A model generated the notes under the pieces. That model saw only the letters and a list, made by a program, of their open reading frames with translations, did not search any database and was not told where the DNA came from. The translations under genes were made by a program, and so were the position numbers. 64,000 nucleotides of DNA from a bacterium. Its GTDB lineage: Bacteria > Myxococcota_A > Bradymonadia > REDH01. The stretch spans positions 16 to 64,015 of the forward strand of contig JAUICO010000006.1 of NCBI GenBank assembly GCA_030427825.1, read 5' to 3'. Shown piece by piece: positions 32,285 to 62,309 of the stretch. Each line of letters begins with the position of its first letter. The stretch's first letter is position 1.

Positions 32285-32315
32285 GCTTTGGGGAAGCAAG
32301 AAGGCAGCTTCCCTG
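32285..32315 (-). terminator. Possible hairpin terminator after the cox-III/IV pair.
   Basis: GGGAAGC-9 nt-GCTTCCC perfect 7-bp stem, ~70 nt downstream of the subunit-IV stop. There is no U-tract, so it is weak. Confidence 0.25.
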
Positions 32316-40292: not shown

Positions 40293-40315
40293 TGCGCCAT
40301 CACGGAGGTCTACAT

Positions 40316-46006: not shown

Positions 46007-46206
46007 GGCATACCTGCGAAAGTAAGGGGGGCATCGACGTGGCCTGCGCGCATGTTTTGCGAAGGGCCCGCGCCGGGTGTATTGCACGATGTGAGCGTAT
46101 ATCCCGCACCGCATTCGGCGTGACAACCCGGACAGTCTCCTGTAAGGGTTGCGGCCGTTGTGCGTCCATAGCGGGTTGAAAGACACTGCACGCAGAGAGT
46201 GAGATT

Positions 46207-47019
46207 ATGACGATGTTCCGAGCCACAATCATTGCCGTGGTGTGCCTGTTTTTCGCAGCGCCCGTGTTGGCGCAGAGCGAAGCTGAAGAGGCGGGAAACC
46301 GCGCGATTGACGCTGTGACCGGCGGTTCCGACGACGGGGGAGACTCCGCGGAAGGCGCTGCCGATGTCGAAGCCGCGGGGGCGGACGGCGAAGAAGCTGA
46401 CGACGCTGACGACACGGTGACCGGCGACGGCGTGAACCCGAACGACACGGGTAGCGGCGTGGCAGGCGCGTTGGACGACGGCAGCTACGGTCTTCGAATC
46501 GAAGAGCTTGAGGATCAGGTCAACGAGCTGAAGGAGGACGTGTTCCGCTCGAAGTCGCGCCTGTTCCTGCTTCGTGAGCAGATCCTACAGGACAACATCG
46601 GTGGAGCCCGCGCCATCATTGAGCACAAGAGTGAGTTCGGGAACCGACTCCTGATCACGCAGGTGCTCTACAGTCTCGACGGCGACCTGGTGTTCAGCAC
46701 GACCGCCGAAGAGGCGGAGGTCGACTCTCTCGACGACATCCTGATCATGAACGACGCCATTCTACCCGGCCCGCACAACATCTCAGTGCAGATGAGCATA
46801 GAGGGTAACAGCAGTTTCTTTTCGTACCTCAACGGATACCACTTCACGATCACCTCGTCTGAGGCCTTCTCGGTAGAGCAGGGGCAGACGGCTGAGGTTG
46901 ATGTCGTGGCATTTGAGCGTGGCGACTCGAACGAGCCCTTCGAGGAGCGACCTACGGTCCGCTTCGAAGTGGATCTCTACGCCACGACTGAAGTTGAAGG
47001 CACCGACGGAGGATCATGA
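46207..47019 (+). CDS. Secreted protein with an acidic N-terminal region. First gene of the envelope-machine cluster.
   Basis: Signal peptide (MTMFRATIIAVVCLFFAAPVLAQS), D/G/E-rich segment, then a ~150-aa domain. Its stop overlaps the next start as ATGA. Confidence 0.5.
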   Translation: MTMFRATIIAVVCLFFAAPVLAQSEAEEAGNRAIDAVTGGSDDGGDSAEGAADVEAAGADGEEADDADDTVTGDGVNPNDTGSGVAGALDDGSYGLRIEELEDQVNELKEDVFRSKSRLFLLREQILQDNIGGARAIIEHKSEFGNRLLITQVLYSLDGDLVFSTTAEEAEVDSLDDILIMNDAILPGPHNISVQMSIEGNSSFFSYLNGYHFTITSSEAFSVEQGQTAEVDVVAFERGDSNEPFEERPTVRFEVDLYATTEVEGTDGGS

Positions 47020-49319
47020 TGTCAATTGGTGGGCTGTATCGCGGCCCGCGAACGCAGGCCGCGCTGCTCGGCGCGATCGTGTTGTTCGCGCCATCGGTGC
47101 TTTTTGCGCAGAGCGTGACGGCGCTCTCATCCCAGGCGGACGAGCTCAGTGTCTCCGTCGATGAGTTGAATCGCGGACTTGTGCGCCCTGAGTTGGAGCG
47201 ACATGAGGTCGATCCCGGCCGCCGCGCTGCGGAAGGCGAAGTGCTCTTCCTGGTCGGTGACTACGAAGGCGCCGCCACCTCGCTGGCGGAGCTGGTAGAG
47301 AGCCGGGAACACGCGGCGCATCCGGCGATGCCGCGGGCGCGCTACATTCTGGCAGAGAGTCTGTACCAGGTCGGCGCCTATAGTATCGCTGCGGATTACT
47401 TTGAGACAGTGCTTGCGGGCCCCGAGGTCGACTATCAGCGCGACGCTGCGGTCCGTCTGCTCGAGATCGCGTTGAAGCTTCGTCGCTATGAAGAAGTGGA
47501 CCAGCGATATGGTCAGATGCTGGCTCGCTTCGGCGATGATCTGGGTGACCGCCTCGCCTATCTTCAGGGTCGGGCGCGGCACCTGAGCGGCGACTACAAT
47601 GCTGCAGTGACCGCGTTCCGTACTGTTCCTGCGAATTCGGACCTGTACGTGCAGAGCAGGTACCTCGCAGGAATCGCGCTGGTACAGCTCGATGATCTTG
47701 AGAACGCGATGGCGGAATTCGCTGCGGCCTCCGAGCTGAGCGCTGAAGCGATGCCGGGCACTCCTGAGCACGACGTTCATCAGCTGGCCCAGCTCGCGAT
47801 TGGCCGTCTGAACTACGAGTCATCGGCGTTCACCCCCGCGGTACTGGCGTACGCGCAGGTCGACTCGCAGAGCGATCACTTCTTCGATGCGATCTACGAG
47901 ATGTCCTGGACGCTGATCCGTGAGGAGCGTTTTACTGACGCCATCTACAACCTTGAGCTGCTGTACCTGCTCAGCGAAGGCGCACACTCGCGATATCGCG
48001 CTGAGGCGGGTCTCGTGGTGGGCGACCTTTACCGACGCAATGAGCGCTTCGACGACGCAGTGCGTTCCTTTGGTGATGTGGTCGAAGAGTTCGAGCCGAC
48101 AAGGGCCCGCATCGATGACCTCCTCCGCGGGGGGCACTCGGTGCTGGAGATCTACAACGCACTGGTCGGACACGACGACACGTTGCGGACGGGGCTTCGA
48201 GTCAGCGACTGGGTCGAAGAGACTCCGGAGATGACCCGCGCCATGGGCGTAATCCGCGACGCTGCCCGCCTGGAAGGGTGGGTCGAGAGTGCACGTGACA
48301 CGGTCAATGCACTCGACGCGGCCCTGAATTCGCGCAGCCGAGTGGATATCTTCCCTGAGCTGCGCAACGCGTGGGCACACCTGGTGGGTGCGCAGGGCAC
48401 GAGCCTGCAGATCCGTTCTGACCTTCTCGAGGTCGAGCGCGAGCGCTCCTACGCGACGCTTCCGCCGGCGGAGCAGACACGTCTGGGCGAGCTGCGCGCA
48501 TTGAGCACGGCGGCGTGGACGGAGTTCGGAAACACCCCCAACAGCTTCGATGAGCTGCTGGAAGTGGAGACGCAGCGTGGAGATGAGATCCAGGCGATGA
48601 TTCTTGATGTGTATCGCACGGAGCTGCAGCTGGAAGGCGAGCTCCGCGAAGTGCAGTCCATGCGGGATATGCTTCGCGAGCGAGTTCGTCGCGGCGAGAC
48701 GAGTCGCGACGTGGCCCTCCAGGCCGAGGCCGAGCTTATTGCTGAAGAAGAGCGCATCCACTCGGCGATGCGTGAACGGCGCGAGCTGCGCGAGCGGCTT
48801 GAAGTTCGCGCGGCTACGACCGGTGTAGGCGGAATCTCCGCCGACTCGGAACGTGCGGCGCAGGAAGTACTGTTCGCCTTCGCTCAGGAACATGACCTGA
48901 TCGCCGGCGCCGGCGCCACCTACGACGATCTCAATGACGTCTACGCGAAGCTGGACGACATCGACCGACGAATCGGAATCTCCTTTTCAGCGATCGATTC
49001 ACTGGTTCAGGACGTGTTGCTGGGATTCCACCAGGTCCTTGCGGATGAGAGTCGACGACTTGAGGCATACGAGGCGGTGCTTCGCCGGTACGAGCGCTCC
49101 GGCGCGACCGTCGCCGGCAGCATCGCCATGGACAGCTTCAGGCAGGTCCGCGATCGTGTCGCCGAGATTACGCTGCGAGCGAATCTGGGGATGATCGATA
49201 TCAAGTGGTGGGAGAAGGAAAGCGTGACCCGGCGGATTTCGGACCTGTTCGAGGAGAAGGACCGCCAGTTGCGGATTCTCGACGCCGACTTCGCAGAGAT
49301 TCGTCTCTCGGACGATTGA
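47016..49319 (+). CDS. Secreted TPR-repeat protein (767 aa).
   Basis: Signal peptide. Multiple TPR-like helical hairpins (AADYFETVLAGPEVDYQRDAAVRLLEIALK...). Coiled-coil C-terminus. Translationally coupled on both sides. Confidence 0.65.
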   Translation: MMSIGGLYRGPRTQAALLGAIVLFAPSVLFAQSVTALSSQADELSVSVDELNRGLVRPELERHEVDPGRRAAEGEVLFLVGDYEGAATSLAELVESREHAAHPAMPRARYILAESLYQVGAYSIAADYFETVLAGPEVDYQRDAAVRLLEIALKLRRYEEVDQRYGQMLARFGDDLGDRLAYLQGRARHLSGDYNAAVTAFRTVPANSDLYVQSRYLAGIALVQLDDLENAMAEFAAASELSAEAMPGTPEHDVHQLAQLAIGRLNYESSAFTPAVLAYAQVDSQSDHFFDAIYEMSWTLIREERFTDAIYNLELLYLLSEGAHSRYRAEAGLVVGDLYRRNERFDDAVRSFGDVVEEFEPTRARIDDLLRGGHSVLEIYNALVGHDDTLRTGLRVSDWVEETPEMTRAMGVIRDAARLEGWVESARDTVNALDAALNSRSRVDIFPELRNAWAHLVGAQGTSLQIRSDLLEVERERSYATLPPAEQTRLGELRALSTAAWTEFGNTPNSFDELLEVETQRGDEIQAMILDVYRTELQLEGELREVQSMRDMLRERVRRGETSRDVALQAEAELIAEEERIHSAMRERRELRERLEVRAATTGVGGISADSERAAQEVLFAFAQEHDLIAGAGATYDDLNDVYAKLDDIDRRIGISFSAIDSLVQDVLLGFHQVLADESRRLEAYEAVLRRYERSGATVAGSIAMDSFRQVRDRVAEITLRANLGMIDIKWWEKESVTRRISDLFEEKDRQLRILDADFAEIRLSDD

Positions 49320-49363
49320 TGCGGACACTTTGGAACATAGCACCGACACCTTCGAGGAAAGGG

Positions 49364-52300
49364 ATGCGATCAATTTTTCATAACCGCGCAATGGTCTGCG
49401 TTTATGTCGCGGCGGCGTTGACTGCCGGCGCGGCAGTCGCCGTGGACAGTCGTGCCCATGCGGACTCCGGGGCTCCGGCTGACTTCGCAGTGGGGGGCTC
49501 GCCAGAGGCTCTGACTCCGTTTGAGCATCCCGAGAGCGAGCTGCTCGCTCAAGCGGCGGAAGGCGAAGAGGCTGAAGGCAGTGAGCGCACGCTCCTGTCG
49601 CGCCCGATGCCTGGAACCGATGAAGTCGAGGCGAGCGCCATTACGGACTTCGAGCGCGCTCTGCGTGACTACGAAGAAGAGATGCTCGACTACCGACGAA
49701 GCATCGAGCAGGTTGTTGAGGTCGAATACCTGAGTCGTCGCGGCCAGATTCGAGACTTCTTCCAGGACGAAATCGACGCGCTTCGTATCGAAGAGCGTGC
49801 GCGGCGTGCCGAGGCAATCGCAGACTTCGAGGGCTTCCTTGAGCGCTTTCCGAATCACCCGGACTACGCGCCGGACGTCATCTTTCGCCTCGCCGAGCTG
49901 AACTACGAAAAGGCAGAGGATGACTACCTTCTTGCCGACATCGAGTACGCCGAGTTGGAGCAGCGCTACGACCTTGGTCTGATCGCAGAGCTGCCAGACC
50001 CGCCGGAGAAGAACTTCAACCCCAGCATCCGGCTCTTTGAGCGCCTGCTGAATCAATTTCCCGACTACCGTCAGGCGGACGGCGCGTACTATCTGTTGGC
50101 GATGTGCCAGCTGCAGATGGACGAGTACGATCCATCGCTGGCGAACTTCACAACCCTCGTGTCCGCGTACCCCAACTCCGACTTTGCTCAGGAAGGCTGG
50201 CTGCGTATCGGCGAGTTCCACTTTATGGAGTTGGACTTTCAGCTCGCCCGTGCCGCGTACGAGCGTGCGATCGAGTACGGTGACTCTATCTGGTACGACA
50301 AGACCCTCTTCAAGCTGGGCTGGTCGAACTACCTGTTGAACGACTACGACACCGCGATCAACAACTTCCAGACTCTGTTGCGCTACTACGGCGAAGATGA
50401 CGATGGGGCGACGGAGAAGGCTGTGCGTGAAGAAGCGCTGCAGTACTTCGCGATCGCGGTGTCCGAAGAGGACTGGGACTTCGACGGTGAGGTGGATGAA
50501 GGATTCGTCCTCGGTCGGGTGGAACAGTACCTGAGCGAAGATGAGCCGTTTACGGTTGAAGTGCTCGACCGGATCGCGACGATGTTGATGGACAATCAGC
50601 GTCATCAGCACGCCATCGACGTGCATCGCTACATTCTTGAGCGGTACCCGTTGGATCCGGAGAACCCGAAGCGTCACGAGCAGATCATTATCGCATTCTC
50701 GCGAATGAATGAGATTCCGCAGGCTCTCGCTGAAGGTCGGCGTCTGGGCGAGCTCTATGGCCCGGACTCCGAGTGGTGGCGAGCCCAGGAGATGGAAGGA
50801 AACCTGGAGCAGATGGCCTACGCCGAGCAGCTTGCACGTGACATGCTCTTTCAGACGGCGAACACGCTCTATGTTGAGGGCGACGACCTCGCTGCGCGCG
50901 CCATCATTGAGGGCGATGACACGCTCCTCGCGCAGTCGGTGCAGCGCTACCAGGCCGCTGCGCAGATCTATGAGGAGTTCCTGAGCCTCTACCCGAACGA
51001 TCCCGAAGCCTACACCGTGCAGATGTATCTCGGTCAGGCCCGCTTTAACTCGGATGAGTTCGCGGAGGCGGCCACCGCTTTCGCCGCAGTTCGCGACTCA
51101 CAGATCAGCAATCAGTTCCGCGTCGCAGCTGCGGGTCTCACGATCTCTGCCTATGAAAAGGCTCTAGAGAAGGCCATCGACGCGGGCGAGCTCGACGGAA
51201 TCGCGTGGCCGGCGCATCGGGACAATGTCCTCGCGGACCTTCTGCCCGATATCGGCATCGAGGCCGAAGACGATGAGGATGACGAAGACGAGGCGGGTAG
51301 CGGCCCGCGCGACGCGTCGCAGATTCCGGTTCCCGAGCTGTCGGGGTTGTGGGCGGCGTCGATCGACCGCTACGTCGAGATGGACCTGAACGCAGAGGAT
51401 GATCCCACTCAGCAGGGTCGCTACGGCTACAACGCCGCGATCATGTACTACCTGCATGGCCATTACAACGAGGCGAAGGAACGATTCGCGTACATCGTTG
51501 AGAACTACTGCGGTCAGGATGAGGTCGGATTCTCGGCCGGCTTCCTGATGAACTCCGCTCGTCTCTCGGGCGCCTTCTCGGAAGCCGATGCAGTCAAGCA
51601 GTTGATCGAGCGACGAGTCGCCGCCAATTGTGTGGACCCGGAGATTCTGGCCGCGCTTGAGCGCGACATGGATCTCATGATCATCGGAATCGCGTTCGAA
51701 GCGGCCGAGGCCTACTACCGCGAAGGAGACTACCTCGCGGCGGCGCAGGAATATGTGCGCGTGGTCAATCAGTACCCGGAGAACGAAGACGCTGCGAAGG
51801 CGCTGTTTAATGCGGGTCTGATCTACGAGCAGGACCTGCGGATGAACGAGCTGGCGATGCGCCAGTTCGACCGCGTCATCGCGGAGTACCCGCAGAGCGA
51901 GTTCATCAACGACACGCTGGTGCGTATCGCGATCAACTCGAAGCGCTTCTTCGATTTCGATCGCGCCATCTCGACCTTCCAGCTTCTCTACGACCGCGGC
52001 TACAACAGCGACCTGGTGGAGCATCCGCTCCTCGATGCGGCACAGCTGCGCGACTATTCACAGCAGCACCGCGAAGCGATACGATCGTACGAAGAGTGGT
52101 TGGGTGACAATGCGAATGACCCGCGCGCTCCGGCGGTTCTGTACCAGACGGCGGTGATCTACCGACGTCTCGGCGACGAGCGTGCCGCGATTCGTGCTCT
52201 TGAGCGGTTCCGCCAGCAATACGGCCGACGTCAGAGCGACATCATCGATGTGGACGCCGCGGTCATCGACTCGCTGCACGCTGAGATGGAGTACTACGAA

Positions 52301-52987
52301 GCGAACAACAACACGCGCTCGTACAACCGCGCCCTGGACCAGCTGCTGGACGAATTCTCCGCTCGGAACCCGGACAACCCGGAGTCGACATACGTTGTGG
52401 CGGAACTCGCCTACAACAACGTTGTTGAAGAGTACGAAGAGTGGGACTCCGCCGATCTGGGCGAGACTCTCAGTACGCAGCGAACACGCCTGACGGAGCG
52501 TCGAGAGGGAATGCAGGATCTGTTGGACCGCTTTGACGCGGTGTCAGGCTTCAACTCTGCGGATTGGACCGTGTGTGCCTGGTACATGAGAGGACGAGTC
52601 TACCAGCGCATGGCGGACCTGCTCTACAGCCTGCCGACACCGGATTTCCGTGGCGACTACGACGCAGAGGATGAGTACGTCCTGCAGATTGAAGGCTTCG
52701 CATCGCAGTACGAGGATGCGGCTGTCCTGGAATGGCAGGCGACCTATCCGCTCATGCAGCAGCTGGGCGTTGTTAACGAATGTACCTACAATATGACCCG
52801 TGAGCTGAACCGATACCGCGGTGGCGAGTTTCCGATCTTCCGAGAGGCGGAGACCCACATGGAGAGCGTGCTCTTTGCGCCGCAGGTCTTTGCGGTTCCA
52901 CGCCTTGAGGTTGAGGACGAGCAACGTGAATCGATCCGTCTCCATGACGAAGACGAAGCCGGCGATGCCGATGAAGGACAGGAGTAA
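49364..52987 (+). CDS. Large secreted TPR-repeat protein (~1210-1260 aa), GltD/AgmU-sized. Start either 49319 or 49364; 49364 has a GGAAAGGG RBS.
   Basis: Signal peptide (MVCVYVAAALTAGAAVAVDSRAHA). >10 TPR-like repeats throughout and an acidic C-terminus. Confidence 0.65.
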   Translation: MRSIFHNRAMVCVYVAAALTAGAAVAVDSRAHADSGAPADFAVGGSPEALTPFEHPESELLAQAAEGEEAEGSERTLLSRPMPGTDEVEASAITDFERALRDYEEEMLDYRRSIEQVVEVEYLSRRGQIRDFFQDEIDALRIEERARRAEAIADFEGFLERFPNHPDYAPDVIFRLAELNYEKAEDDYLLADIEYAELEQRYDLGLIAELPDPPEKNFNPSIRLFERLLNQFPDYRQADGAYYLLAMCQLQMDEYDPSLANFTTLVSAYPNSDFAQEGWLRIGEFHFMELDFQLARAAYERAIEYGDSIWYDKTLFKLGWSNYLLNDYDTAINNFQTLLRYYGEDDDGATEKAVREEALQYFAIAVSEEDWDFDGEVDEGFVLGRVEQYLSEDEPFTVEVLDRIATMLMDNQRHQHAIDVHRYILERYPLDPENPKRHEQIIIAFSRMNEIPQALAEGRRLGELYGPDSEWWRAQEMEGNLEQMAYAEQLARDMLFQTANTLYVEGDDLAARAIIEGDDTLLAQSVQRYQAAAQIYEEFLSLYPNDPEAYTVQMYLGQARFNSDEFAEAATAFAAVRDSQISNQFRVAAAGLTISAYEKALEKAIDAGELDGIAWPAHRDNVLADLLPDIGIEAEDDEDDEDEAGSGPRDASQIPVPELSGLWAASIDRYVEMDLNAEDDPTQQGRYGYNAAIMYYLHGHYNEAKERFAYIVENYCGQDEVGFSAGFLMNSARLSGAFSEADAVKQLIERRVAANCVDPEILAALERDMDLMIIGIAFEAAEAYYREGDYLAAAQEYVRVVNQYPENEDAAKALFNAGLIYEQDLRMNELAMRQFDRVIAEYPQSEFINDTLVRIAINSKRFFDFDRAISTFQLLYDRGYNSDLVEHPLLDAAQLRDYSQQHREAIRSYEEWLGDNANDPRAPAVLYQTAVIYRRLGDERAAIRALERFRQQYGRRQSDIIDVDAAVIDSLHAEMEYYEANNNTRSYNRALDQLLDEFSARNPDNPESTYVVAELAYNNVVEEYEEWDSADLGETLSTQRTRLTERREGMQDLLDRFDAVSGFNSADWTVCAWYMRGRVYQRMADLLYSLPTPDFRGDYDAEDEYVLQIEGFASQYEDAAVLEWQATYPLMQQLGVVNECTYNMTRELNRYRGGEFPIFREAETHMESVLFAPQVFAVPRLEVEDEQRESIRLHDEDEAGDADEGQE

Positions 52988-54664
52988 ATGTTGATGAAGA
53001 CTCGCATTCATCAGGTTGCGGTACTTGTCCTCGCCGGGCTGCTTGCTGCCTGCGGTAGCAAGCAGAGCGCTACTGAGGGCAGCACAGGCACCACCCGTCC
53101 GGACGCCCGACCGACTGCACAGGCAGCAGCGCCCAACGCCTCCCCTGCGCAAGCGCCTGCCCCGGCCGCTGCGCCGACAGAAACGATTGCGGAAGCAGAG
53201 CCCGCTCCGGAGGATGCGGCGCCCATCGTGGCGCCTGAAGACGGTACCATTGAAGAGCGTCTGATGTACCGGATGGAGGAGGCCGTTGATCGCGCCCGCC
53301 GCGGTAATTTCGAGATCGCGAAGGTGGAGTTGCTTCAGCTGCTGCGCGAAGACCAGGTGGCTGCATACGCGGCTTACAACCTTGGTGTCATCGCGTACTA
53401 TGAGGGTCAGACCGGTCAGGCGCTGGAATATTACGAAGTCGCGCTCGAGCAGGACCCGACCTTCGCCCCACCGTTGCTCGCGACGGTGCGTCATCACATG
53501 GCGGGTGGCGATACATCGGTGGCTCGCGACCTGGTCCGACGACAACTGCAGAACTCGGAAAACGCGCCGACCGTTCAGGGCGTCGAGTTGTACCTGACGC
53601 TGGCCGACGGTCGCTACGAACAGGTTATCCAGGACGGTCGCCAGGTATTGATCGCTGACGCCGGCAATATGGATGCGCATTTCACGATGGCGATGGCGCA
53701 CTACAACCTGGGCCGGCTTGAGCTCGCTCGCTATATTCTCGAAGAGGGAATCTCGCGCGACGAAGGCCGTCCCGATTTCTACTTTGCTCTTGCTCGCATC
53801 TACCTTGACCGCGACGAGAAGATCCGCGCGCGAACCTACCTCGAGCGGGCGCTTGAAATTGACTCGAGTCACCCGGAAGCGAGCAACAACCTCGGCGTGC
53901 TGAATCTCGAGTCACGAAACTTTGAAGCGGCAGAACAACTGTTTCGCGGTGCCATCGAGCGTGCTCCGAACTACGAAGAAGCGTGGGTGAACCTGGGGAA
54001 CGCGTTGAAAGGTCAGCAGCGATACAATGAGGCCCGTGATGCATACAACCGGGCCATGCAGATGAGCCCGACCTATCCGGCGCCGTACTACAACCTGGGA
54101 ATTCTCTTTCTGGATACCGAGATGGACGGACTGGGTGAGGCGGACCGAATTCAGCGCGCGCTGGAGTACTTCAGCGACTTCCGAACCCGCTACGGTGCGG
54201 GTCTTCCCGCAGAGCATCCGGTCAACACCTACCAGAGTGAAGCGGTTGCACGCCTCGAAGTCATTCGCGAGCTGGAGCAGAGTGCGCAGCTGGAGCAGGA
54301 GCAGGACACACGGCAACCGGAGCAGTCCAATCAGGAAGGCGGGTACGCCGATCAGGCTTGCTTCGACGACTTCTGTGTTGACGATGCCGATCCGGACCAG
54401 TGCTACCAGGATTTCTGCGGAGGCTCCGGCAGTGACGGCGGCGATAGCGGGACGCCGGCGAGCTATCCGGACCAGGGATGCTTTGAAGAGTTTTGTGAAG
54501 GGGAGATGGACGAAGCCCAGTGCTATGAGGACTTCTGTGGCGGCTCCGACGACGAAGACACTGAGAGCTCGGATGGCGGCGGCTATGAAGACCAGCAGTG
54601 TTTCGACGACTTCTGCGCGGGCGATGCCGACCCCGACCAGTGCTACCGCGACTTCTGCGAGTAG
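52988..54664 (+). CDS. TPR-repeat lipoprotein with a C-terminal 4x Cys-rich acidic repeat.
   Basis: MLMKTRIHQVAVLVLAGLLAACGSK (lipobox). TPR repeats (YNLGVIAYYEGQTGQALEYYEVALEQDP...). The C-terminus carries four copies of Q.CF(D/E)(D/E)FC....D..QCY.DFCGG. Confidence 0.7.
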   Translation: MLMKTRIHQVAVLVLAGLLAACGSKQSATEGSTGTTRPDARPTAQAAAPNASPAQAPAPAAAPTETIAEAEPAPEDAAPIVAPEDGTIEERLMYRMEEAVDRARRGNFEIAKVELLQLLREDQVAAYAAYNLGVIAYYEGQTGQALEYYEVALEQDPTFAPPLLATVRHHMAGGDTSVARDLVRRQLQNSENAPTVQGVELYLTLADGRYEQVIQDGRQVLIADAGNMDAHFTMAMAHYNLGRLELARYILEEGISRDEGRPDFYFALARIYLDRDEKIRARTYLERALEIDSSHPEASNNLGVLNLESRNFEAAEQLFRGAIERAPNYEEAWVNLGNALKGQQRYNEARDAYNRAMQMSPTYPAPYYNLGILFLDTEMDGLGEADRIQRALEYFSDFRTRYGAGLPAEHPVNTYQSEAVARLEVIRELEQSAQLEQEQDTRQPEQSNQEGGYADQACFDDFCVDDADPDQCYQDFCGGSGSDGGDSGTPASYPDQGCFEEFCEGEMDEAQCYEDFCGGSDDEDTESSDGGGYEDQQCFDDFCAGDADPDQCYRDFCE

Positions 54665-54675
54665 GCGGAACAACG

Positions 54676-54936
54676 ATGGAGACGACAATGACATCACGAT
54701 CGTTCGCATTGATTGCAGGTCTGTTCTTCACGATCGCGGTTCTCATGATCGCTTCGATGGCGGCGGCCGAAAACGAGAACATCTTCATTTTTGAAGAAGA
54801 CATCATCACGGGCGAGATCGAGAAGCCGGAGGCGTTCTATGTGCTCCGTGCATCGAGCCTCGACTACGAGTTTGACGACCGTGCGGAGAGCTTCCTTGAG
54901 GAGCTCCGACGAACCGTGGACCACGAAGCGTTTTGA
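54676..54936 (+). CDS. Small secreted protein (87 aa) of unknown function.
   Basis: METTMTSRSFALIAGLFFTIAVLMIASMAAAE is a signal peptide. Acidic mature part. Lower GC than the neighbours. ATG start. Confidence 0.35.
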   Translation: METTMTSRSFALIAGLFFTIAVLMIASMAAAENENIFIFEEDIITGEIEKPEAFYVLRASSLDYEFDDRAESFLEELRRTVDHEAF

Positions 54937-55495
54937 GTCGGACAGCGCCGAACTGAGTACGACTCAGGGGCCTTGGGCGGCGGCCTTGATGTGGCCTGCT
55001 CGGCACGCGAGACCCATTTGGGGTACGCGAACTACGTGCCACGACTGATCTACGTGAACGGGCGACGTCCCTGACCTGTTGGCGAGCGCCATCCGCCGCC
55101 GGCCGGACCGGTTCAAGGGAGTCGCCAAAGCCGCGCGTGAGCGCGATGCAGAGGCCCCGGTGACTCGGGTCTTCGGAGGCACACCTGTTGCCTCCTGCGC
55201 ATGCGCGCGGCCAAAACCGATGGCCCGAAGTACCTGTCAGTTGTGGGCCGCTCACGGCTTCCGCCGACACAGATCGTAGACCGATACCGAGATTCTGGCG
55301 TCGCCATTTTCGCTGTGTTAGTTCAGCACTCGACGTGGGGACGCAGATGAAAGCCAAATGGCTTGTGGACCGAGAATCCGCATAGTAAAGGGCTTCTCCA
55401 CGACGAATTTCGTCAATCACGGGTGGTAACATTTGAGCGGCGGTTCGCTCAATTTGTGTTGGACCTCAGTTAACTAAGACAGGAGCTAGTGAACT

Positions 55496-56137
55496 ATGGG
55501 AGCGATCGCGGATGCATTTCGTGACGGAGGAATCTGGATGTACCTGATCCTTGCGGTATCTATTATCGCGCTTGGGATCATCATCGAACGATTCATCTTC
55601 CTGTTCTTCAAATACAACATCAACGCGAATGCGTTCATGGCGCAGATTCAGAAGCTTGTGATGGCCGGTAATATCGACCGCGCAATCAAGCTCTGTAACG
55701 CCGCCCCGAGCGCAGCGCTGCCGAAGGTTGTGAAGGCTGGTCTCACCCGCGCGAACAAGGGCGAAGTCGCCATTCAGAACGCGATTGAGGAAGCGAGTCT
55801 GGAAGTGATTCCAGTCGTTACTCAGCGTACGCCGGCGCTTCTTGCGCTCGCGAACATCGCGACTCTGCTTGGTCTTCTGGGAACGATTATCGGTCTGATC
55901 GAGGCTTTCAAAGCGCTCGAGGAAGCACCGCCTGAGGAGAAGCAGGAATGGCTGGCACGCGGTATCGCGCTCGCGATGAATACGACGGCCTTCGGCCTTA
56001 TCGTTGCCATCCCGGTACTACTGTTCCACCTCTTCCTGTCAGGAATCACCAAGAAGATCGTCGGTGAGATTGACCAGTACTCGGTCAAGCTGGAGAACCT
56101 TCTGGTGGCTCACTCGAAAGGTCAGACAGTAGACTGA
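55496..56137 (+). CDS. MotA/TolQ/ExbB-family proton channel subunit (AglR/TolQ-like).
   Basis: 3-TM topology, conserved C-terminal TM pair (GIALAMNTTAFGLIVAIPVLLFHLFL). AGGAG RBS. 213 aa. Confidence 0.85.
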   Translation: MGAIADAFRDGGIWMYLILAVSIIALGIIIERFIFLFFKYNINANAFMAQIQKLVMAGNIDRAIKLCNAAPSAALPKVVKAGLTRANKGEVAIQNAIEEASLEVIPVVTQRTPALLALANIATLLGLLGTIIGLIEAFKALEEAPPEEKQEWLARGIALAMNTTAFGLIVAIPVLLFHLFLSGITKKIVGEIDQYSVKLENLLVAHSKGQTVD

Positions 56138-56280
56138 TTCGGTCACGGTCTGGGCTGTATTGCTGGGTGCGACCGTGGCGAAACCTCGCTTCCGGTCGCA
56201 TTTCACATTCAAGGCACTGGTAGACCAACGGGCTGACCTCGATCCGATGCGGTGAGGCGGCGCAACAGGGGCTTACAATC

Positions 56281-57066
56281 ATGGCAAGAAAACGACGAGT
56301 GGAAGTAGACGACGGACAGGGTGACCTGAACCTCGCTCCCATCATGAACATGGTGATGATTCTGATTCCGCTGCTTCTCCTGATGGTGAAGTTTACCGAA
56401 ATCAGCATCATCAACGTCAACGCGCCTGCCCGCGGTCAGTCTGCGCGCCAGGCGGATGACGAGCCGGATGAGGAAGAAGTGCAGGTCCCGCGGGTCGTTG
56501 TCTCAATCTCGAGCGACGGGTTCCGCCTCCTGGACATGCAGCAGCTGCCGGCCTTCGAAGAGTTTGTCCGTCCTGTCACGGGTTGTCCGGGTGCAGGGTC
56601 GACCGGTGGCACTGCGGTTGTTAACCCTCATACAGCTACGGCAACGATCCCTCCGACCATCTGTCTCCGACAGGGTACGGAAGGCATGCCTCTTTCAGAG
56701 CGGCTCGACTACGCCGGCTTGTATAATCATCTGGTCCGCATACGCATGAAGCCGGAATGGTTTGATGCCTTTGGTGAGGAGAACAACTCCATCATCAGCA
56801 TCCTCCCTGATTTCGAGATTCCCTTCGCGACTATCGTGGAGACGATGGATGCGTCGCGCTTCTTTCTCAAGCCGGCGAACTCCGACCTTCCGCCGCCGAC
56901 TGCGGCGTCGGCTCCCGAATCGTACATGCTTGCCGGTGGCAATGGCGCTACGGTCGAAGACCTGAAGAACGCGCACTACGTGGTCACCGAGGGAGACACA
57001 CCTACGCAGGTCGATCTCTTTCCGGATCCGGTGCTGCTCCTGCCGAACGCAGGATCGGGTGGCTGA
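56281..57066 (+). CDS. ExbD/TolR-family protein with a ~120-aa C-terminal extension (AglQ/S- or ExbD-like).
   Basis: DLNLAPIMNMVMILIPLLLLMVKF matches the ExbD/TolR N-terminal TM signature. 261 aa, compared with ~140 aa for typical members. Confidence 0.8.
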   Translation: MARKRRVEVDDGQGDLNLAPIMNMVMILIPLLLLMVKFTEISIINVNAPARGQSARQADDEPDEEEVQVPRVVVSISSDGFRLLDMQQLPAFEEFVRPVTGCPGAGSTGGTAVVNPHTATATIPPTICLRQGTEGMPLSERLDYAGLYNHLVRIRMKPEWFDAFGEENNSIISILPDFEIPFATIVETMDASRFFLKPANSDLPPPTAASAPESYMLAGGNGATVEDLKNAHYVVTEGDTPTQVDLFPDPVLLLPNAGSGG

Positions 57067-57127
57067 GCGCCGCTCGCCGAGTATTCCTCCCAGTTCCACT
57101 TTTCCGAGCTACTCCTGACGGAGCATT

Positions 57128-57724
57128 ATGGCAGACCAGCAAACACAACTTGAAGAGGTAGAAGCGCTTCTTGCTCGCCGGAAGCGGGCCGCGCGAAAAG
57201 CGCGTGTCGCAGCCAGTCGGGTGGAGAAGGAAGAAGGCCTCAACATCAACTCGATGATGGACATGATGGTCATCATCCTGTGCTTCCTACTCAAAAGTAT
57301 CGGGTCGGACCCGGTGACCATCACTCAGAGCGCTGACCTGCGTCTGCCGTATTCCACGGCGGAGCTGGCGCCGGAAGACATGATTACGATCACGGTCACC
57401 AAGCGCAGCGTGATGGTGGACGATCACGAGATCGTGCCTCTCACGGATGGCTCTGTTGACGTCGGTCTCCTGCAGAGCGCCGAGTCGCTGATCATTCCTG
57501 AGCTTCAGGCTTCCGTTGAAGAGCTGTTGCAGGAGCGTGAGCAGCTCTCCGCCCAGTTGGGCCGGGAGTTTGAGAAGATTGCGACACTCATCTGCGACAG
57601 CGAGACCCAGTATCGACTGCTTGCGCAGGTCATGGCGACCGCGAATGCAGGCGGTATTCAGAACTTTAAGTTCGCAGTAATCAAGCGTGGCCAGGGCGCC
57701 GGCCTGGTTTCTGCGTCAGATTGA
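57128..57724 (+). CDS. Second ExbD/TolR-family protein.
   Basis: LNINSMMDMMVIILCFLLKS TM signature and a periplasmic ExbD-like domain. 198 aa. Confidence 0.8.
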   Translation: MADQQTQLEEVEALLARRKRAARKARVAASRVEKEEGLNINSMMDMMVIILCFLLKSIGSDPVTITQSADLRLPYSTAELAPEDMITITVTKRSVMVDDHEIVPLTDGSVDVGLLQSAESLIIPELQASVEELLQEREQLSAQLGREFEKIATLICDSETQYRLLAQVMATANAGGIQNFKFAVIKRGQGAGLVSASD

Positions 57725-57855
57725 CGAGCGGGTGTCGTCTTACTGGTGAGCGCAGAGCGACAGTTGTATGATGCGACTGCGTCCGATCACGTCGCGCGTA
57801 ACTAATCGCACGACGCACACCACCGAATTCGCCTGAAGGCAGACAAGGACACTCG

Positions 57856-59235
57856 ATGGCAACTCAAAAGCGCGAGAGAATTCTTCGACTCGGTATCATT
57901 CAGAATGGCCGAATCATTGAAGAGCGCCTGGTACGGGAACGCAAGCCGGTAAAGGTCGGCCAGACCCTGAAGAACGACTTTGTCATTGCTTCCGGTGAGT
58001 TCCCGCAGTCGCACATACTTTTCGGCGTGAAAGGGGGAAGATACGTTCTCAATTTCACCGAGAAGATGGCGGGGCGCCTTGCGCTCGGCGACGCGGTACA
58101 TGATCTGAACAGCCTCAAGCAGACCGGCAAGGCTCGACGATCGGGCGGAAGCTGGGAGCTCGACCTTTCGGATCGCTCGCGAGGCAAAGTGTCGCTTGGC
58201 GACGTCACGATTCTGTTTCAGTTCGTGAACCCGCCGCCCCTTCGAGTGCTGCCGCAGCTGCCTGCAAATATGCGAGGCGGGATCCTCCTGTTCATGGCTT
58301 CGGTTATGGGCCTGAGCGGAGTACTGCTGGCCACGCTCACCTTCTCGGCAATTCTCCAGATCGGGTTCGTAACGTACGTACGGTATTTTGTGCCGCCGCC
58401 TCCACGTCCGACGCTCGCAGACATCTCTGCTCGCATCATTCGGCCGCCGGCTCCGATTGAGGAGGAGCCCGACGTTGAGGATGTTGATTTGACAGAAGAT
58501 GGCGACATCGTCGTCGACAATGCAGAGACCGACGAAGGCGCAGAGGACGATTCCGGTGCCGTCGAACAGGATAGCGGCGGTGGTGCTTCTGACGGAGAGA
58601 TCCGGGAAGTCAGTGAGCGGGTTGTTCAGGAATCGGCGCTGTCTTCACTTCTTGGAGCTGACGGTGGCATCGATCTCGGGATCACGACGACGGACCAGAT
58701 GGCCGCAAACCGCGCTGAGGAGGCGCTGGCGAATCAGCAGGCTCGTGGTGCAGTCGGAGACGGCATTGTGTCGAGTGCAGGCCTCGGAACCAGTCAGGGC
58801 GCGGAAGGCCGACAGGGACGCCACGGAGTAGGCACTGGTGGTTCAACGGTGGCTGCGACGGCGGAGGTCGCGCAAGCCGCAGAGAGTGAGCAGGTTCGCG
58901 TAACTGCAAACGTGCGTGGAAGCAGCGCCCGTACAGCCGGTTCGGGCAGCCTCGATAACAGCGCCGTGAATCGTGTACTCCGGCGCCGTAGCCGAGATGT
59001 TGAGCGGTGTTATGAGCGTGGTTTGAACTCAAACCCCGGTCTTGGCGGTCGTGTCGTTGTCCAGTTCACCATTGGTACGGACGGTCGGGTCTCGAACGCG
59101 CGACTGCCTACGAATGAAGTCGGCAGCTCGGTTGGAAACTGTATTCTGGGCCGTGTCCGTCGGTGGCGATTCCCGGAACCCGACGGCGGTACCGTCACGG
59201 TCCGTAAGGCGTACGTGCTCAGCCCCGGCAGTTGA
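57856..59235 (+). CDS. Bitopic protein with an N-terminal FHA-like cytoplasmic domain, one TM helix, a Pro/Gly-rich periplasmic linker and a C-terminal TonB-C-like domain (GltG/GltJ- or TonB-like).
   Basis: N-terminus GQTLKNDFVIASGEFPQSHILFGVKGGRYVL is FHA-like. TM helix GILLFMASVMGLSGVLLATLTF. C-terminus CYERGL...GGRVVVQFTIGTDGRVSNARL...VRRWRFPEPDGGTVTV fits TonB_C. Confidence 0.55.
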   Translation: MATQKRERILRLGIIQNGRIIEERLVRERKPVKVGQTLKNDFVIASGEFPQSHILFGVKGGRYVLNFTEKMAGRLALGDAVHDLNSLKQTGKARRSGGSWELDLSDRSRGKVSLGDVTILFQFVNPPPLRVLPQLPANMRGGILLFMASVMGLSGVLLATLTFSAILQIGFVTYVRYFVPPPPRPTLADISARIIRPPAPIEEEPDVEDVDLTEDGDIVVDNAETDEGAEDDSGAVEQDSGGGASDGEIREVSERVVQESALSSLLGADGGIDLGITTTDQMAANRAEEALANQQARGAVGDGIVSSAGLGTSQGAEGRQGRHGVGTGGSTVAATAEVAQAAESEQVRVTANVRGSSARTAGSGSLDNSAVNRVLRRRSRDVERCYERGLNSNPGLGGRVVVQFTIGTDGRVSNARLPTNEVGSSVGNCILGRVRRWRFPEPDGGTVTVRKAYVLSPGS

Positions 59236-59409
59236 TGGGACAGAAGCGCTGTGTCCGGGCCCATCTTCACGGTGTGCATAGAGCGACCAGATCTTCTCCG
59301 AGCCTGCCTTAGATTGACAGCCTTCGTCGGCTGGATTACGTATCCAAGCTGAGAAATCTGACCCCGAATCTCCGTTGTAGTGTCGCTAGATGCGGCCCTT
59401 GGAGGAACA

Positions 59410-59970
59410 ATGCACCGAATCTTGAAGTGCACAGTGGTAGCACTGTGCTTTGCTCTACTGCCGATTGCCATCGTGAACTCGCAGTCTACCGCGTCTGAAA
59501 CAGACGATGTGGCGCGAATGAGCGATGAGGAGAAGATCTCCGCTGCTCGGCAGAATCGAACCGAAATGGCCAACGCTCGGGACAGAGTGGCCGAGCTCGG
59601 TGCAGAGGTCACTGAGGCGGAAGGCGATGGAAGTCGAGGTCGCTGCATCGAGCAGAATCTCGCATCGATCGACGGCTTCATTCGAGTTGGCGCCCGTGCT
59701 TTCGACCACATGGTCGAAGCTCTCGGTATCGGCGACGACCAGCATGCGGTACACCAGTTCCTGATCATCAGGACGGTGAAGCAGAGCACGCTCGGTCGTG
59801 AAGCTGATGCTCGCCAATGCGCCGGATTCGCGCTGACGTACACCGGCGACACGCAGCGTCGCGTTGAGATTGATGAGATGCCCACGGATGTACTGAATAT
59901 TTTGAACAACTGGGGCGGCGCGGTGATCATCCGAGAGGATATTCGGCCCAACGGAACAGCCACCTTCTGA
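59410..59970 (+). CDS. Secreted protein of unknown function (186 aa).
   Basis: MHRILKCTVVALCFALLPIAIVNS is a signal peptide. GGAGG RBS. No motif. Confidence 0.4.
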   Translation: MHRILKCTVVALCFALLPIAIVNSQSTASETDDVARMSDEEKISAARQNRTEMANARDRVAELGAEVTEAEGDGSRGRCIEQNLASIDGFIRVGARAFDHMVEALGIGDDQHAVHQFLIIRTVKQSTLGREADARQCAGFALTYTGDTQRRVEIDEMPTDVLNILNNWGGAVIIREDIRPNGTATF

Positions 59971-60091
59971 TTCATTGGTTCTGCAAATCTGCCTTTTCAA
60001 ATTCTATAGCTATCGACCGGCATGCTCTTCTGTTAGGAGCGCCGTCCCATCGCGCAGGACCCGAGTCGGGTTGTGCAACGAGAGTGTCTAA

Positions 60092-61510
60092 ATGATTTCA
60101 ATGAAGACGATACGCGCCATCATGGTGTGCAGCGCCATCGCGCTTGCCGGTATGGGGAGCGCCCCAGACGGGCACGCGGCAGAGTCAACAGGGATCGACG
60201 TCGGAAACCTCGTGATTCGGCCGTCGCTCCGTTTGTCAGTAGGTTACAATACCAACGTCTTTCTCCAGTCCAAGCGTGAGCTCGACGGTGAGATGGCATC
60301 GCCGGTACTGGCCATTTCACCGCGCCTCGCGTGGGCAGTGAACAACCCCCGCAGCATCGATTTCAATGGCGATTTCGGGGTCTCATGGACGCAGCCTTTT
60401 GCCGGTGATCCGGGTGTCAACGAAGACTTTCGCGATCAGCACCTGACCGCCAGTGGCTCTGCTGGACTCGTGTTCAATCCGCGGGGCGCAGTGAGCTTTT
60501 CGCTTGAGGATCGCATGCGTCTCGCCGACACGGACGCGTCCGTCGATATTCAGGAAGACGAGTTTGGTGTGGTGTTTTCCGAGCGCGGCAATGACATCGG
60601 CGCCGCCAAGATTTTCGCGAACTCACTTTCTGCCAGCATCGGCTTTCATCCTCACGGGATGTACCGGGAGAGCCGCATGGGTTTCAGCGGCACCCTGTCG
60701 GCGCATTGGCGTCGGTTCCGCTACCTTGAGCGTCACAGTTCGGACCACAGCGCGATGGGTGGACGGCTTCAGTTGAACTGGAACTTCCTTCCGCGCTCGA
60801 TGGTCTATCTGGTCCTCGGTGTGGACCGAACCGTTTATGACGAAGATGCGTCGCTTGCACTCACGCGAATCGAAGTTCTTCCTTCACCTGACGTCGTGAA
60901 CAATCCACTGAGGAACGTGGCTTCCACAGCGGTGCGCGTAAGCATCGGCTATGCTGGCCTTATCGCTCGTCGCCTTTCCGCAACCGCACAGATCGGGTTT
61001 GGTGTGGGCCTCTACGAAGAGGGTGCATCACCCTCGAGGATCGGTGCGCTTCTTCAGCTTCGTTACCAGATCAATTCGTCGAACAGCCTCCAAGTTGGCT
61101 ACTCCACCGACTTCGCAGATGCGACGTTTGCCAACTACATCGATTTCCATCGCCTGTGGGCGGGTTGGAGCGCCGAGGGTGAGAAGTTGAGCGGTGAAAT
61201 CGCAGCGTTCTGGCAGATCAATTCCTATTCAGAGTTCCAGTCCACCGTGCCTGACGACGAAGGCGGCGTGGTCGAGGTGTACAACGCCAGCGAACGCTCC
61301 GATTACATTCTCGGCGCCAAGGCATCGATCGCGCTGCACATCACCTCCAATGTGCATGTTGGACTGCGTTACCAGATCAACGGAACGTGGACGGACTTCG
61401 AAGCGACGCGGACCGGCGGCTCGATTGATGACCAGATCAACACGCCTCTTTCCGGCGATCCGGAGTTCCTGAGGCACCAGATCATGCTCTATCTTCAGCT
61501 GCAGATGTAG
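60092..61510 (+). CDS. Putative outer-membrane beta-barrel protein.
   Basis: Signal peptide. Alternating hydrophobic beta-strand pattern throughout, with a C-terminal aromatic-rich strand (HQIMLYLQLQM). 472 aa. Confidence 0.45.
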   Translation: MISMKTIRAIMVCSAIALAGMGSAPDGHAAESTGIDVGNLVIRPSLRLSVGYNTNVFLQSKRELDGEMASPVLAISPRLAWAVNNPRSIDFNGDFGVSWTQPFAGDPGVNEDFRDQHLTASGSAGLVFNPRGAVSFSLEDRMRLADTDASVDIQEDEFGVVFSERGNDIGAAKIFANSLSASIGFHPHGMYRESRMGFSGTLSAHWRRFRYLERHSSDHSAMGGRLQLNWNFLPRSMVYLVLGVDRTVYDEDASLALTRIEVLPSPDVVNNPLRNVASTAVRVSIGYAGLIARRLSATAQIGFGVGLYEEGASPSRIGALLQLRYQINSSNSLQVGYSTDFADATFANYIDFHRLWAGWSAEGEKLSGEIAAFWQINSYSEFQSTVPDDEGGVVEVYNASERSDYILGAKASIALHITSNVHVGLRYQINGTWTDFEATRTGGSIDDQINTPLSGDPEFLRHQIMLYLQLQM

Positions 61511-61637: not shown

Positions 61638-62309
61638 ATGACGACCGACTTCAGAGAGCAACCGCGAAGGCGACAACCGGGCTCCCACTTCATCGGGTCG
61701 TGTCTTTCGCTACTTCTGACTCTTGCTGCGACGTCGCTGCTTGTCAGCGCGTGCAGGACCCAGGTCAGCGACGACTATTTGGAGTGGGCGCGAAGGTCGT
61801 ACGCTGAAGTGCCCGAAGTGCGTCTGGGAGCCGGCGACGAGCTGGAGCTCCGAATCTATCCGGATCGTACACTATCCGGTGAGTACGTTGTCCCACCGGG
61901 CGGCGCGATCAATCACCCGCTCATCGGTCTACTCCAGGTCGCGAACCGGACCTGTTTCGAGATTGAGCAGGATGTAACGACCCGGCTCGCAGACGGGCTG
62001 TACCGGTCCCCTGCGGTAACCTGCCAGATCACGAAGCTGCAATCGGCGGCTGTGACCATGATTGGCAGCTTCAGTACGACCGGCGCCTTCGCGTATCGCG
62101 AAGGCCTGACTGCCATTGACGCGCTCGCGGCTGCAGGTGGGTTCACAGCGGGTGCCGGTCGGGACCGGGTACAACTCACTCGAGTTATTGATGGCGTTCA
62201 GTACGAGATCGTGATTCCGCTACAGTCGGTCTTGAAGGGAAGAGCGCCGAATTTTCTACTCTGGCCTGATGACCTGCTATATGCACCCGGGCAGGGAGCG
62301 TTCGACTGA
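61638..62309 (+). CDS. Polysaccharide export outer-membrane lipoprotein, short Wza/GumB type.
   Basis: Lipobox LLVSAC. Poly_export-like motif (GDELELRIYPD...YVVPPGGAINHPLIGLLQVANRT..EIEQDV). SLBB-like GLTAIDALAAAGGF. Confidence 0.7.
   Translation: MTTDFREQPRRRQPGSHFIGSCLSLLLTLAATSLLVSACRTQVSDDYLEWARRSYAEVPEVRLGAGDELELRIYPDRTLSGEYVVPPGGAINHPLIGLLQVANRTCFEIEQDVTTRLADGLYRSPAVTCQITKLQSAAVTMIGSFSTTGAFAYREGLTAIDALAAAGGFTAGAGRDRVQLTRVIDGVQYEIVIPLQSVLKGRAPNFLLWPDDLLYAPGQGAFD

Follow-up and report, generated by a model that had tools for sequence, protein, structure and literature searches.

What kind of envelope machine does a bacterium build from tetratricopeptide-repeat (TPR) scaffolds, a TolQ-like channel subunit and polysaccharide export proteins encoded side by side? 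The question is raised by the 64,000-nucleotide stretch of DNA analysed here (the window; contig JAUICO010000006.1 of assembly GCA_030427825.1, positions 16 to 64,015), whose plus strand carries thirteen closely spaced genes from position 46207 to the window end. An earlier sequence-only reading had grouped ten of these as a cluster spanning 46207–61510 that resembles the Agl-Glt gliding motor of Myxococcus, with a TonB-type uptake system as the alternative. Its ten open reading frames (ORFs) are all present on the plus strand with unchanged coordinates, and its assignment of three TPR proteins, one TolQ-like protein, two ExbD-like proteins and one forkhead-associated (FHA)/TonB-C protein to a single cluster holds by Pfam, hhalign and AlphaFold/Foldseek. 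The proposed boundaries fared less well, since a small gene (pF, 54688–54936) had been overlooked and the end at 61510 cuts the unit short. Sequence comparison makes it highly probable that the region is a G4-type member of the Agl/Glt-like core complex family that possesses its own motor. We put at about 0.6 the probability of the fuller reading, in which this G4-type Glt-like transducer, driven by its own motor, acts on exported polysaccharide.

The relationship to G4 is evident from a BLASTP comparison with the G4 locus of Archangium and with an nfsA–H locus fetched from Corallococcus. Proteins p2, p3, p4, pF and p8 are each homologous to an Nfs counterpart, and each is closer to its counterpart in Archangium G4. 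p2 (47016–49319), a GltC-like periplasmic TPR protein of 767 residues with a signal peptide, matches the G4 GltC-like protein over its full length (E 1e-43, 159 bits) and NfsC at E 3e-8 (47 bits). p3 (49364–52987) is a GltD/AgmU-like periplasmic TPR scaffold, also with a signal peptide, that carries TPR_6, YfiO and YbgF-like repeats (Pfam/NCBIfam); it shares 29% identity over 1102 residues with the Archangium orthologue of MXAN_1922 (431 bits, E 3e-135) and 20% identity over 1102 residues with Corallococcus NfsD (143 bits, E 1e-37). Its length is 1207 residues, the 1260 originally assigned to it being reached only from an upstream GTG. p4 (52988–54664), a GltE-like TPR lipoprotein of 558 residues, scores 109 bits against the G4 GltE-like protein versus 87 bits against NfsE, and its LAAC lipobox bears out the suggestion that one of the TPR proteins is lipid-anchored. 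pF, a GltF/NfsF-like small secreted protein of 82 residues, is called as a gene in an identical public contig and has a signal peptide visible in its translation; it matches the G4 small protein at E 3.5e-10 (43 bits) and NfsF at E 1.4e-4 (28.5 bits). The GltG-like transducer p8 (57856–59235; 459 residues) matches its G4 counterpart over the full length with 165 bits, and NfsG through the C-terminal domain only with 91 bits.

G4 therefore gives the best pairwise score for every shared protein. Protein sizes also agree with those in Table S3 of Luciano et al. 2011 (PMC3169522), which lists MXAN_1919 with 447, MXAN_1920 with 91, MXAN_1921 with 490, MXAN_1922 with 1111 and MXAN_1923 with 809 residues. 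The homologue column for the G4 rows of that table is printed reversed, and we read MXAN_1919–1923 as GltG-, F-, E-, D- and C-like from sizes and annotations. A similarity of the TPR proteins to GltD and GltE, proposed earlier as a check, is borne out by the full-length alignment of p3 with NfsD and by p4, which has GltE as its best NCBIfam family.

The same comparison bears on the possibility that the cluster is an Nfs-like machine for spore-coat assembly. Homologues of NfsC, D, E, F and G are all present, and Nfs transports the Exo polysaccharide, itself exported by an outer-membrane polysaccharide export (OPX) protein, by means of a TolQRR-type motor. Every shared protein, however, is clearly less similar to Nfs than to G4, counterparts of NfsA, B and H are absent, and Myxococcaceae carry both G4 and Nfs, as distinct clusters. 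Moreover, we know of no report of sporulation in Bradymonadales. A spore-coat machine is on these grounds very improbable.

Two further conserved genes, p1 and p9, belong to the G4 type. p1 (46207–47019), the first gene of G4-type clusters, encodes a secreted protein of 270 residues composed of a signal peptide, an acidic low-complexity stretch, a coiled coil and a beta-rich C-terminal part. It has no Pfam or NCBIfam match and is 39% identical to a protein of the Archangium G4 locus (BLASTP); in most related loci a homologue immediately precedes the gene for the GltC-like protein. p9 (59410–59970) encodes a secreted protein of 186 residues, or 196 if translation begins at an upstream GTG at 59380, and likewise has no Pfam or NCBIfam family match. 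Its homologues are weak in similarity but conserved in position, most loci having them after the GltG-like gene and before the Wzp-like one, and by its sequence relatives p9 appears to be a conserved accessory gene of G4 loci. We considered p1 as GltA/B and p9 as GltH and rejected both identities, because hhalign similarity to NfsA/B and to NfsH, respectively, is confined to the signal peptide. Both proteins find matches only among Archangium-type proteins, and profile comparison relates neither to NfsA, B or H.

The arrangement recurs widely. Out of 510 confirmed matches to p3 we kept 80 loci, all 80 with a full-length relative of p3, and searched them with the window proteins by tblastn. The nearest GTDB species representatives by p3 are uncultured Bradymonadales (38–40% identity), with other Myxococcota next. 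The order p1-p2-p3-p4-pF-p5-p6-p7-p8-p9-p10-Wza recurs in metagenome-assembled genomes (MAGs) labelled Bradymonadales, Nannocystaceae, Anaeromyxobacter and Myxococcota, and pF has matches (E ≤ 0.01) at the same position in 70 of the 80 loci. With the same gene order in about 70 loci of other genomes, the arrangement is not due to chance. Downstream neighbours were counted in the 51 loci with at least 9.5 kb available 3' of the GltD-like gene. The motor is retained in 20 of these, and in all 20 a Wzp-like and a Wza-like gene follow downstream; the other 31 have no motor, and among them a Wzp-like gene is found in 27 and a Wza-like gene in 26. Both the porin and the Wza-like gene are thus downstream in 46 of the 51 loci.

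Motor-less loci include those of Myxococcaceae (Archangium, Pyxidicoccus, Myxococcus, Corallococcus, Hyalangium and Citreicoccus), which keep the same order without p5–p7 and have mglB-mglA directly upstream (L028, L030, L033–L043, L045, L048–L050, L052, L055–L058, L060, L062, L066, L067, L069, L071, L073–L075 and L080). These are the G4 loci, because in M. xanthus mglA and mglB are MXAN_1925 and MXAN_1926, and WzpB and WzaB are MXAN_1916 and MXAN_1915. The master motility switch and the G4-type Glt paralogue are consequently neighbours in this family. Of the 26 motor-less loci whose upstream DNA is long enough, 22 have a gene for MglA there; no motor-containing locus does. The window cluster is of the motor-containing kind: tblastn finds neither mglA nor mglB anywhere in it, so that the mglBA arrangement of Myxococcaceae is absent, and genes for ValRS and a response regulator lie upstream of the cluster instead.

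In sum, the window cluster shares with G4 (MXAN_1919–1923, flanked by MXAN_1924 and MXAN_1918–1915) its set of proteins and their sequence along the DNA (p1-like, GltC-, D-, E-, F- and G-like, p9-like, Wzp, Wza). The two differ in that the Myxococcaceae locus has no motor, whereas here a TolQ/ExbD/ExbD set sits between the F-like and G-like genes. The window cluster is the closest counterpart of Myxococcaceae G4 and, by shared neighbourhood, likely its orthologue. This locus and its roughly 70 relatives show that the original G4 type included a motor of its own. Myxococcaceae also have variable insertions between the p8-, p9- and p10-like genes. In one Myxococcaceae MAG (L025, 10001–22000) an insertion of about 3.4 kb separates the GltD-like gene from the GltE-like one, and no Wza-like match occurs 3' of the barrel gene within the available DNA.

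The ancestry of such clusters was set out by Luciano et al. 2011 (PMC3169522). Their Group B (gltC, D, E and G with aglR, Q and S) is widely distributed and, with one extra gene, forms a contiguous 'core complex' whose function is unknown in Geobacter, Gammaproteobacteria and Fibrobacter. A second group of gliding genes is a later addition confined to Myxococcales and Bdellovibrionales (PMC3169522). The order in Geobacter GM21_0438–0445, namely C, D, E, (gap), R, Q, S, G (Table S3, PMC3169522), is identical to that of the window cluster, in which a small gene fills the gap. Here the cluster differs by its Myxococcota (Bradymonadales-like) host, by the extra genes p1 and p9 and by its Wzp, Wza and Wzc neighbours. 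The proposal that contiguity makes this a new, compact variant is hence unsupported: core complexes of identical order have been known since 2011 (PMC3169522).

Core complexes are known from bacteria that are not known to glide, which leads to the question of whether this one is a working compact Agl-Glt motor with which the organism glides. The homology to Agl-Glt (M1 aglRQS; G1 gltD–J; G2 gltK, B, A, C) is real. AglR, Q and S homologues occur together with those of GltC, D, E, F and G in a single cluster, Agl-Glt likewise has a TolQ protein with two ExbD paralogues, both systems have a bitopic FHA-fold and TonB-C-like protein as the presumed link between motor and transducer, and GltC, GltE and GltG are the best NCBIfam families of p2, p4 and p8. 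Bdellovibrio, moreover, glides and has contiguous expanded clusters (PMC3169522). The identification as a gliding machine nevertheless fails on several counts. All scores against the Glt equivalog models are far under the cut-offs: p2 reaches 72 of 450 bits with GltC (E 5e-20), p4 97 of 225 with GltE (E 1e-27) and p8 116 of 650 with GltG (E 2e-33). The GltA/B/H/K outer-membrane platform is absent, as judged from p1 and p9 being unrelated to NfsA/B/H by hhalign, from the absence of NCBIfam matches and from the sole barrel being of Wzp type, GltK not having been compared directly. Neither the cluster nor the set of large window ORFs that we scanned includes one of GltI or GltJ type. A potential glider has been proposed to need GltA, B and F besides the core (PMC3169522). 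p8 is about 190 residues shorter than GltG, and its predicted FHA-fold domain appears degenerate, the canonical signature not being conserved; as described above, the window also has no mglBA. Finally, a polar mutation in MXAN_1922, the gltD homologue of the nearest Myxococcaceae counterpart G4, leaves motility unaffected; the functions of G4 and of M2, a separate M. xanthus motor encoded by MXAN_3003–3005 (PMC3169522), were stated to be unknown. Gliding is unlikely because no GltA/B/H/I/J/K was found in the cluster or in the large window ORFs covered, scores are sub-equivalog and the G4 mutant is motile, and we would give it only a slim chance.

The motor is encoded by p5, p6 and p7. p5 (55496–56137) is an AglR-like proton-channel subunit of the TolQ/ExbB/MotA family, with 213 residues and three transmembrane helices, and matches MotA_ExbB in Pfam (E 9e-24). 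TolQ is its best-scoring named NCBIfam model, at 52 bits versus a cut-off of 221, and the ExbB equivalogs give 28–42 bits versus cut-offs of 135–206. Solved chains are also distant (E. coli TolQ, E 6e-6; ExbB, E 5e-4). Residues T130, T164 and P173 align with the channel residues T145, T178 and P187 of TolQ and are conserved, and p5 is 66–81% identical in 24 of the 25 related loci where it is present. An exhaustive search returned 183 p5-like representative clusters at E ≤ 1e-30, two of which we examined. One (L083, 4880–7019) is a detached TolQ(261)-ExbD(211)-ExbD(210) set among housekeeping neighbours on a contig of 67% G+C, its TolQ being 49% identical to p5. The other (L084, 2369–12738; 34% G+C) is a Bdellovibrio-type Glt cluster in which TolQ-ExbD-ExbD is followed by a 955-residue protein, a 270-residue TPR protein and an FHA protein.

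The two ExbD-like subunits are unlike each other. p7 (57128–57724; 198 residues) matches ExbD in Pfam (E 6e-11) and keeps the channel aspartate, D45 in its transmembrane helix, in 24 of 24 orthologues. p6 (56281–57066; 261 residues) is divergent and its ExbD match is weak, at 24.2 bits just under the Pfam gathering threshold of 25.4; the p6 and p7 families are homologous by hhalign (92% probability, E 5.8e-7). The transmembrane motif of p6 reads LNLAPIMN, and its Asn23 occupies the position at which ExbD, TolR and MotB have the proton-binding Asp. Among 23 orthologues this position is Asn in 19, Gly in two, Ala in one, Ser in one and Asp in none, and both ExbD paralogues of each of the two sets described above retain the Asp. 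The p6 of the window is 26–70 residues longer than its orthologues. From these alignments the Asp-less paralogue would be a natural variant of the 5:2 stator, in which one plug subunit is without the proton-binding Asp.

The transducer p8 consists of a cytoplasmic degenerate FHA-fold domain, one transmembrane helix, a linker that begins with a short Pro-rich stretch and continues as an acidic, disordered segment, and a periplasmic TonB-C-like AgmX/PglI domain. An AlphaFold (AF2) model built from a 51-sequence alignment has predicted local distance difference test scores above 95 for residues 9–124 and a second confident domain at residues 350–457. Foldseek matches the N-terminal domain to the FHA domains of EmbR, Rv1747, MDC1 and YscD (probability 1.0) and the C-terminal domain to TonB C-terminal domains; since both domains are matched, the 'FHA-like + TonB-C' label given to this protein from sequence is right at the level of the fold. 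None of the 51 homologues has a Pfam FHA match, and the Arg and Ser/His positions of the phosphothreonine-binding signature are not conserved in the alignment. Two cysteines, C385 and C429, are invariant. The C-terminal domain scores 90 bits against myxo_SS_tail, the NCBIfam model of the AgmX/PglI C-terminal domain (cut-off 40), and 20 bits against Pfam TonB_C, below the threshold of 24.6. Because AglR binds GltG and NfsG in M. xanthus, we infer by analogy that p8 would be the link between motor and periplasm.

These features of the motor and of p8 also decide whether the genes might encode a TonB-ExbB-ExbD1-ExbD2 system that energizes import across the outer membrane with TPR accessory proteins, as had been entertained. 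TonB-ExbBD and Tol-Pal do belong to the same motor superfamily: MotA_ExbB and ExbD are the Pfam matches, the channel Thr/Thr/Pro is kept in p5 and the Asp in p7, the bitopic partner has a TonB-C-like periplasmic domain and a short Pro-rich stretch after its transmembrane helix, and homologues are publicly annotated as 'TonB family protein' or 'ExbB'. They differ from the window cluster in its two unlike ExbD paralogues, one of them Asp-less, and in the FHA-fold domain on the partner. That cytoplasmic domain, of 125 residues, is absent from TonB, and for the C-terminal domain it is AgmX/PglI, not TonB_C, that scores above its cut-off; the linker is mostly acidic and disordered, unlike the long Pro-rich spacer of TonB. 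Nor are the motor subunits close to canonical ExbB and ExbD: scores for ExbB and TolQ are far below their cut-offs, p5 is 40% identical to the TolQ of the Bdellovibrio-type Glt cluster, and neither p6 nor p7 has a phmmer match to any solved ExbD, TolR or MotB chain. No TonB-dependent receptor (Plug, TonB_dep_Rec), a nearby example of which was to be looked for, occurs among the window ORFs scanned, which include all of at least 590 residues. The adjacent barrel is instead a BBP2_2/Wzp porin, and the cluster is invariably tied to GltC/D/E/F-like genes. With no receptor among the ORFs scanned, a non-canonical motor and an FHA-fold domain on p8, we reject TonB-type uptake as extremely unlikely.

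What, then, might the motor act on? The genes that follow p9 point to polysaccharide export. p10 (60092–61510) encodes a Wzp-type outer-membrane beta-barrel porin with a BBP2_2 match in Pfam. The sequence-only reading was right to see a barrel here, which is, however, the polysaccharide porin of an OPX module rather than an outer-membrane part of Glt. A profile of p10 orthologues matches the barrels of Myxococcaceae G4 loci just 5' of the Wza-like gene (E 1e-43 to 1e-56), the position occupied in M. xanthus by WzpB (MXAN_1916), a predicted 18-stranded porin that is the partner of the short class-3 OPX protein WzaB (MXAN_1915). Directly downstream, the Wza-like gene (61638–62309) encodes a short class-3-type OPX lipoprotein of 223 residues, with a VSAC lipobox and with Poly_export and SLBB as its only domains; it is 34% identical to the protein that Archangium has at the WzaB position. 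The Wzc-like gene (62387–64000, continuing beyond the window end) encodes a polysaccharide co-polymerase (PCP) with a fused tyrosine kinase. Its window part contains Wzz and GNVR; the identical public contig (L001, with the same proteins in the NCBI assembly and in the Logan assembly of run ERR3428547) was read past the window end and supplies the ParA/AAA_31 kinase domains and the full length of 718 residues. WzcB, too, is a PCP with a fused kinase. Together p10, the Wza-like and the Wzc-like protein have the make-up of a class-3 OPX/Wzp/PCP module, with a short OPX protein, an adjacent barrel and a PCP with a kinase, and p10 belongs with the other two, so that the unit reaches beyond 61510.

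The domain make-up of these three genes is the same as that of WzaB-WzpB-WzcB in the biosurfactant polysaccharide (BPS) pathway of M. xanthus, where WzpB and WzaB export BPS, and p10 and the Wza-like gene are placed, with respect to the G4 genes, where WzpB and WzaB are. Unlike in M. xanthus, all three are contiguous with the Glt-like genes: WzcB is encoded about 1 Mb away from G4 there, whereas here the Wzc-like gene comes directly after the Wza-like one. Islam et al. 2020 described mxan_1915 as 'orphan-like', 1.016 Mbp from the BPS synthesis cluster. Genes for Wzx, Wzy or glycosyltransferases are not found nearby (contig and window ORFs scanned), and the ORFs scanned in the remaining 46 kb of the window include no polysaccharide synthesis genes. 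Among searchable papers we found none that links G4 to WzaB, WzpB or BPS.

The structure of the cluster suggests how such a machine could work. By analogy with the solved ExbB5-ExbD2 and TolQ5-TolR2 complexes, and with the published prediction of an AglR pentamer around an AglQ/AglS heterodimer, p5 would form a pentameric channel around a p6/p7 heterodimer, with the protonatable Asp supplied by p7 alone. Proton flow would be converted to conformational work on the single transmembrane helix of the GltG-like p8, whose TonB-C-like domain, together with the GltC/D/E/F-like TPR scaffold, would pass force to the outer membrane. The output might be gating, extrusion or surface deployment of polysaccharide from the adjacent Wzp/Wza/Wzc module. 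A polysaccharide role is suggested because the barrel and Wza-like genes have been kept beside the cluster in lineages only 28–30% identical in p3, and because Nfs, a Glt paralogue, moves OPX-exported polysaccharide with a TolQRR-type motor. Nfs is the best functional precedent, being a single Glt-like cluster that moves such a polymer by a proton-driven motor of this type; it differs in that it borrows AglRQS and is not encoded beside its exporter, whereas the window cluster has its own motor. Gliding and TonB-type import are less likely than a polysaccharide role. That the neighbouring exporter in particular is the cargo or partner, a suggestion drawn from gene neighbourhood and from Nfs, is possible, at a little under even odds.

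A more serious competitor to action on polysaccharide is a general envelope system like Tol-Pal, serving tethering, constriction or integrity, in which the adjacency to OPX genes would be historical and functionally meaningless. No named model scores better for p5 than TolQ, several TPR units of p3 are of YbgF/CpoB- and BamD-like type, the ancestral core complex occurs in non-gliders with its function unknown (PMC3169522), and 5 of the 51 loci lack a Wza-like gene within 10 kb. Yet the cluster shows no match to TolA, TolB or Pal, a genuine Tol-Pal system exists separately in M. xanthus, and retention of Wzp-like and Wza-like genes in 46 of 51 loci at 28–30% p3 identity is hard to explain without selection. 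We consider a Tol-Pal-like role unlikely, although it merits real weight.

The proposal that the G4-type transducer acts on exported polysaccharide has its own difficulties. The sole published phenotype of the M. xanthus orthologue is negative, motility being normal. The link to export comes solely from gene neighbourhood, and the adjacency could have been inherited without function. Intergenic gaps of 121–174 nucleotides separate p8, p9 and p10, and these, like the insertions in Myxococcaceae, leave room for transcription as separate units. Nfs of M. xanthus does its work after secretion, and its genes lie apart from those of its exporter; the Bdellovibrio-type Glt cluster has no OPX neighbour. 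A 2026 paper that analyses class-3 OPX secretion as a WzcB-WzaB-WzpB system does not, by a term search, name Glt, TPR or TolQ proteins. Lastly, closeness to G4 was judged only from pairwise scores against Nfs and from the NCBIfam Glt models.

Were the G4-type transducer indeed to act on exported polysaccharide, the consequences would extend to M. xanthus. A broader and rather doubtful extension is that the G4-type Glt-like machine, perhaps the core complex generally, is the proton-driven partner of class-3 OPX/Wzp export; the motor, through the TonB-C-like domain of p8 and the TPR scaffold, would open the Wzp/Wza conduit, draw the polymer through or distribute it. Each myxobacterial Glt paralogue would then serve one polysaccharide, Nfs the spore-coat polymer, G4 BPS and Glt slime, and membership in G4 would explain the location of the 'orphan-like' wzaB and wzpB. 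That G4 acts on BPS or its exporter is a hypothesis open to genetics in M. xanthus. If the linkage is only historical, the window holds one more example of a known cluster type. As far as we could find, three features are undescribed: the widespread occurrence of an in-cluster motor in G4-type loci, their nearly invariant linkage to Wzp/Wza, and an ExbD paralogue without the Asp.

The genes are tightly arranged at the 5' end of the cluster. p1 and p2 overlap (ATGA) and p3 and p4 abut directly (TAAATG). p2 and p3 are spaced by 44 nucleotides with a good Shine-Dalgarno sequence, or overlap by one nucleotide if p3 starts at the ATG at 49319. A non-coding gap of 559 nucleotides (54937–55495) lies upstream of the TolQ-like p5, where relatives have about 200–400 nucleotides. 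It has zero Rfam matches, and promoter and terminator counts within it are at or below chance; a regulatory RNA, promoter or terminator was on this basis rejected. The gap contains a single terminator-like hairpin at 55433–55452. The public contig has a 208-residue minus-strand ORF called at this gap, which overlaps pF and is probably spurious. G+C content in the window is about 0.58–0.69.

One feature of p4 is peculiar to the window. Its C-terminal ~125 residues (54280–54664) form an acidic tail with six C[FY]x(1,2)[FY]C motifs arranged in three longer repeats, for example CFDDFCVDDADPDQCYQDFC. The Cys-rich tail is unique to the window sequence among 80 orthologues, the other 79 having acidic or Lys/Ala-rich low-complexity tails without those Cys motifs. 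It may be a module for disulfide or metal binding.

Just upstream of the cluster, on the minus strand, lie divergent genes for a 369-residue response-regulator protein (44218–45327) and for a 242-residue ORF without a family match (45458–46186); both are possible regulators of the cluster. The remaining 46 kb of the window contains mostly housekeeping genes, with no other glt genes among the ORFs scanned. It also encodes an 851-residue protein with thrombospondin type-3 repeats (13972–16527, plus strand) and, on the minus strand, an 847-residue protein with PPC and caspase (C14) domains (29756–32299), a multihaem cytochrome of the c554/c7-like type (38475–40364) and a Pyr4-like membrane terpene cyclase (6946–7704) beside an MpaB/Lcp-like oxygenase.

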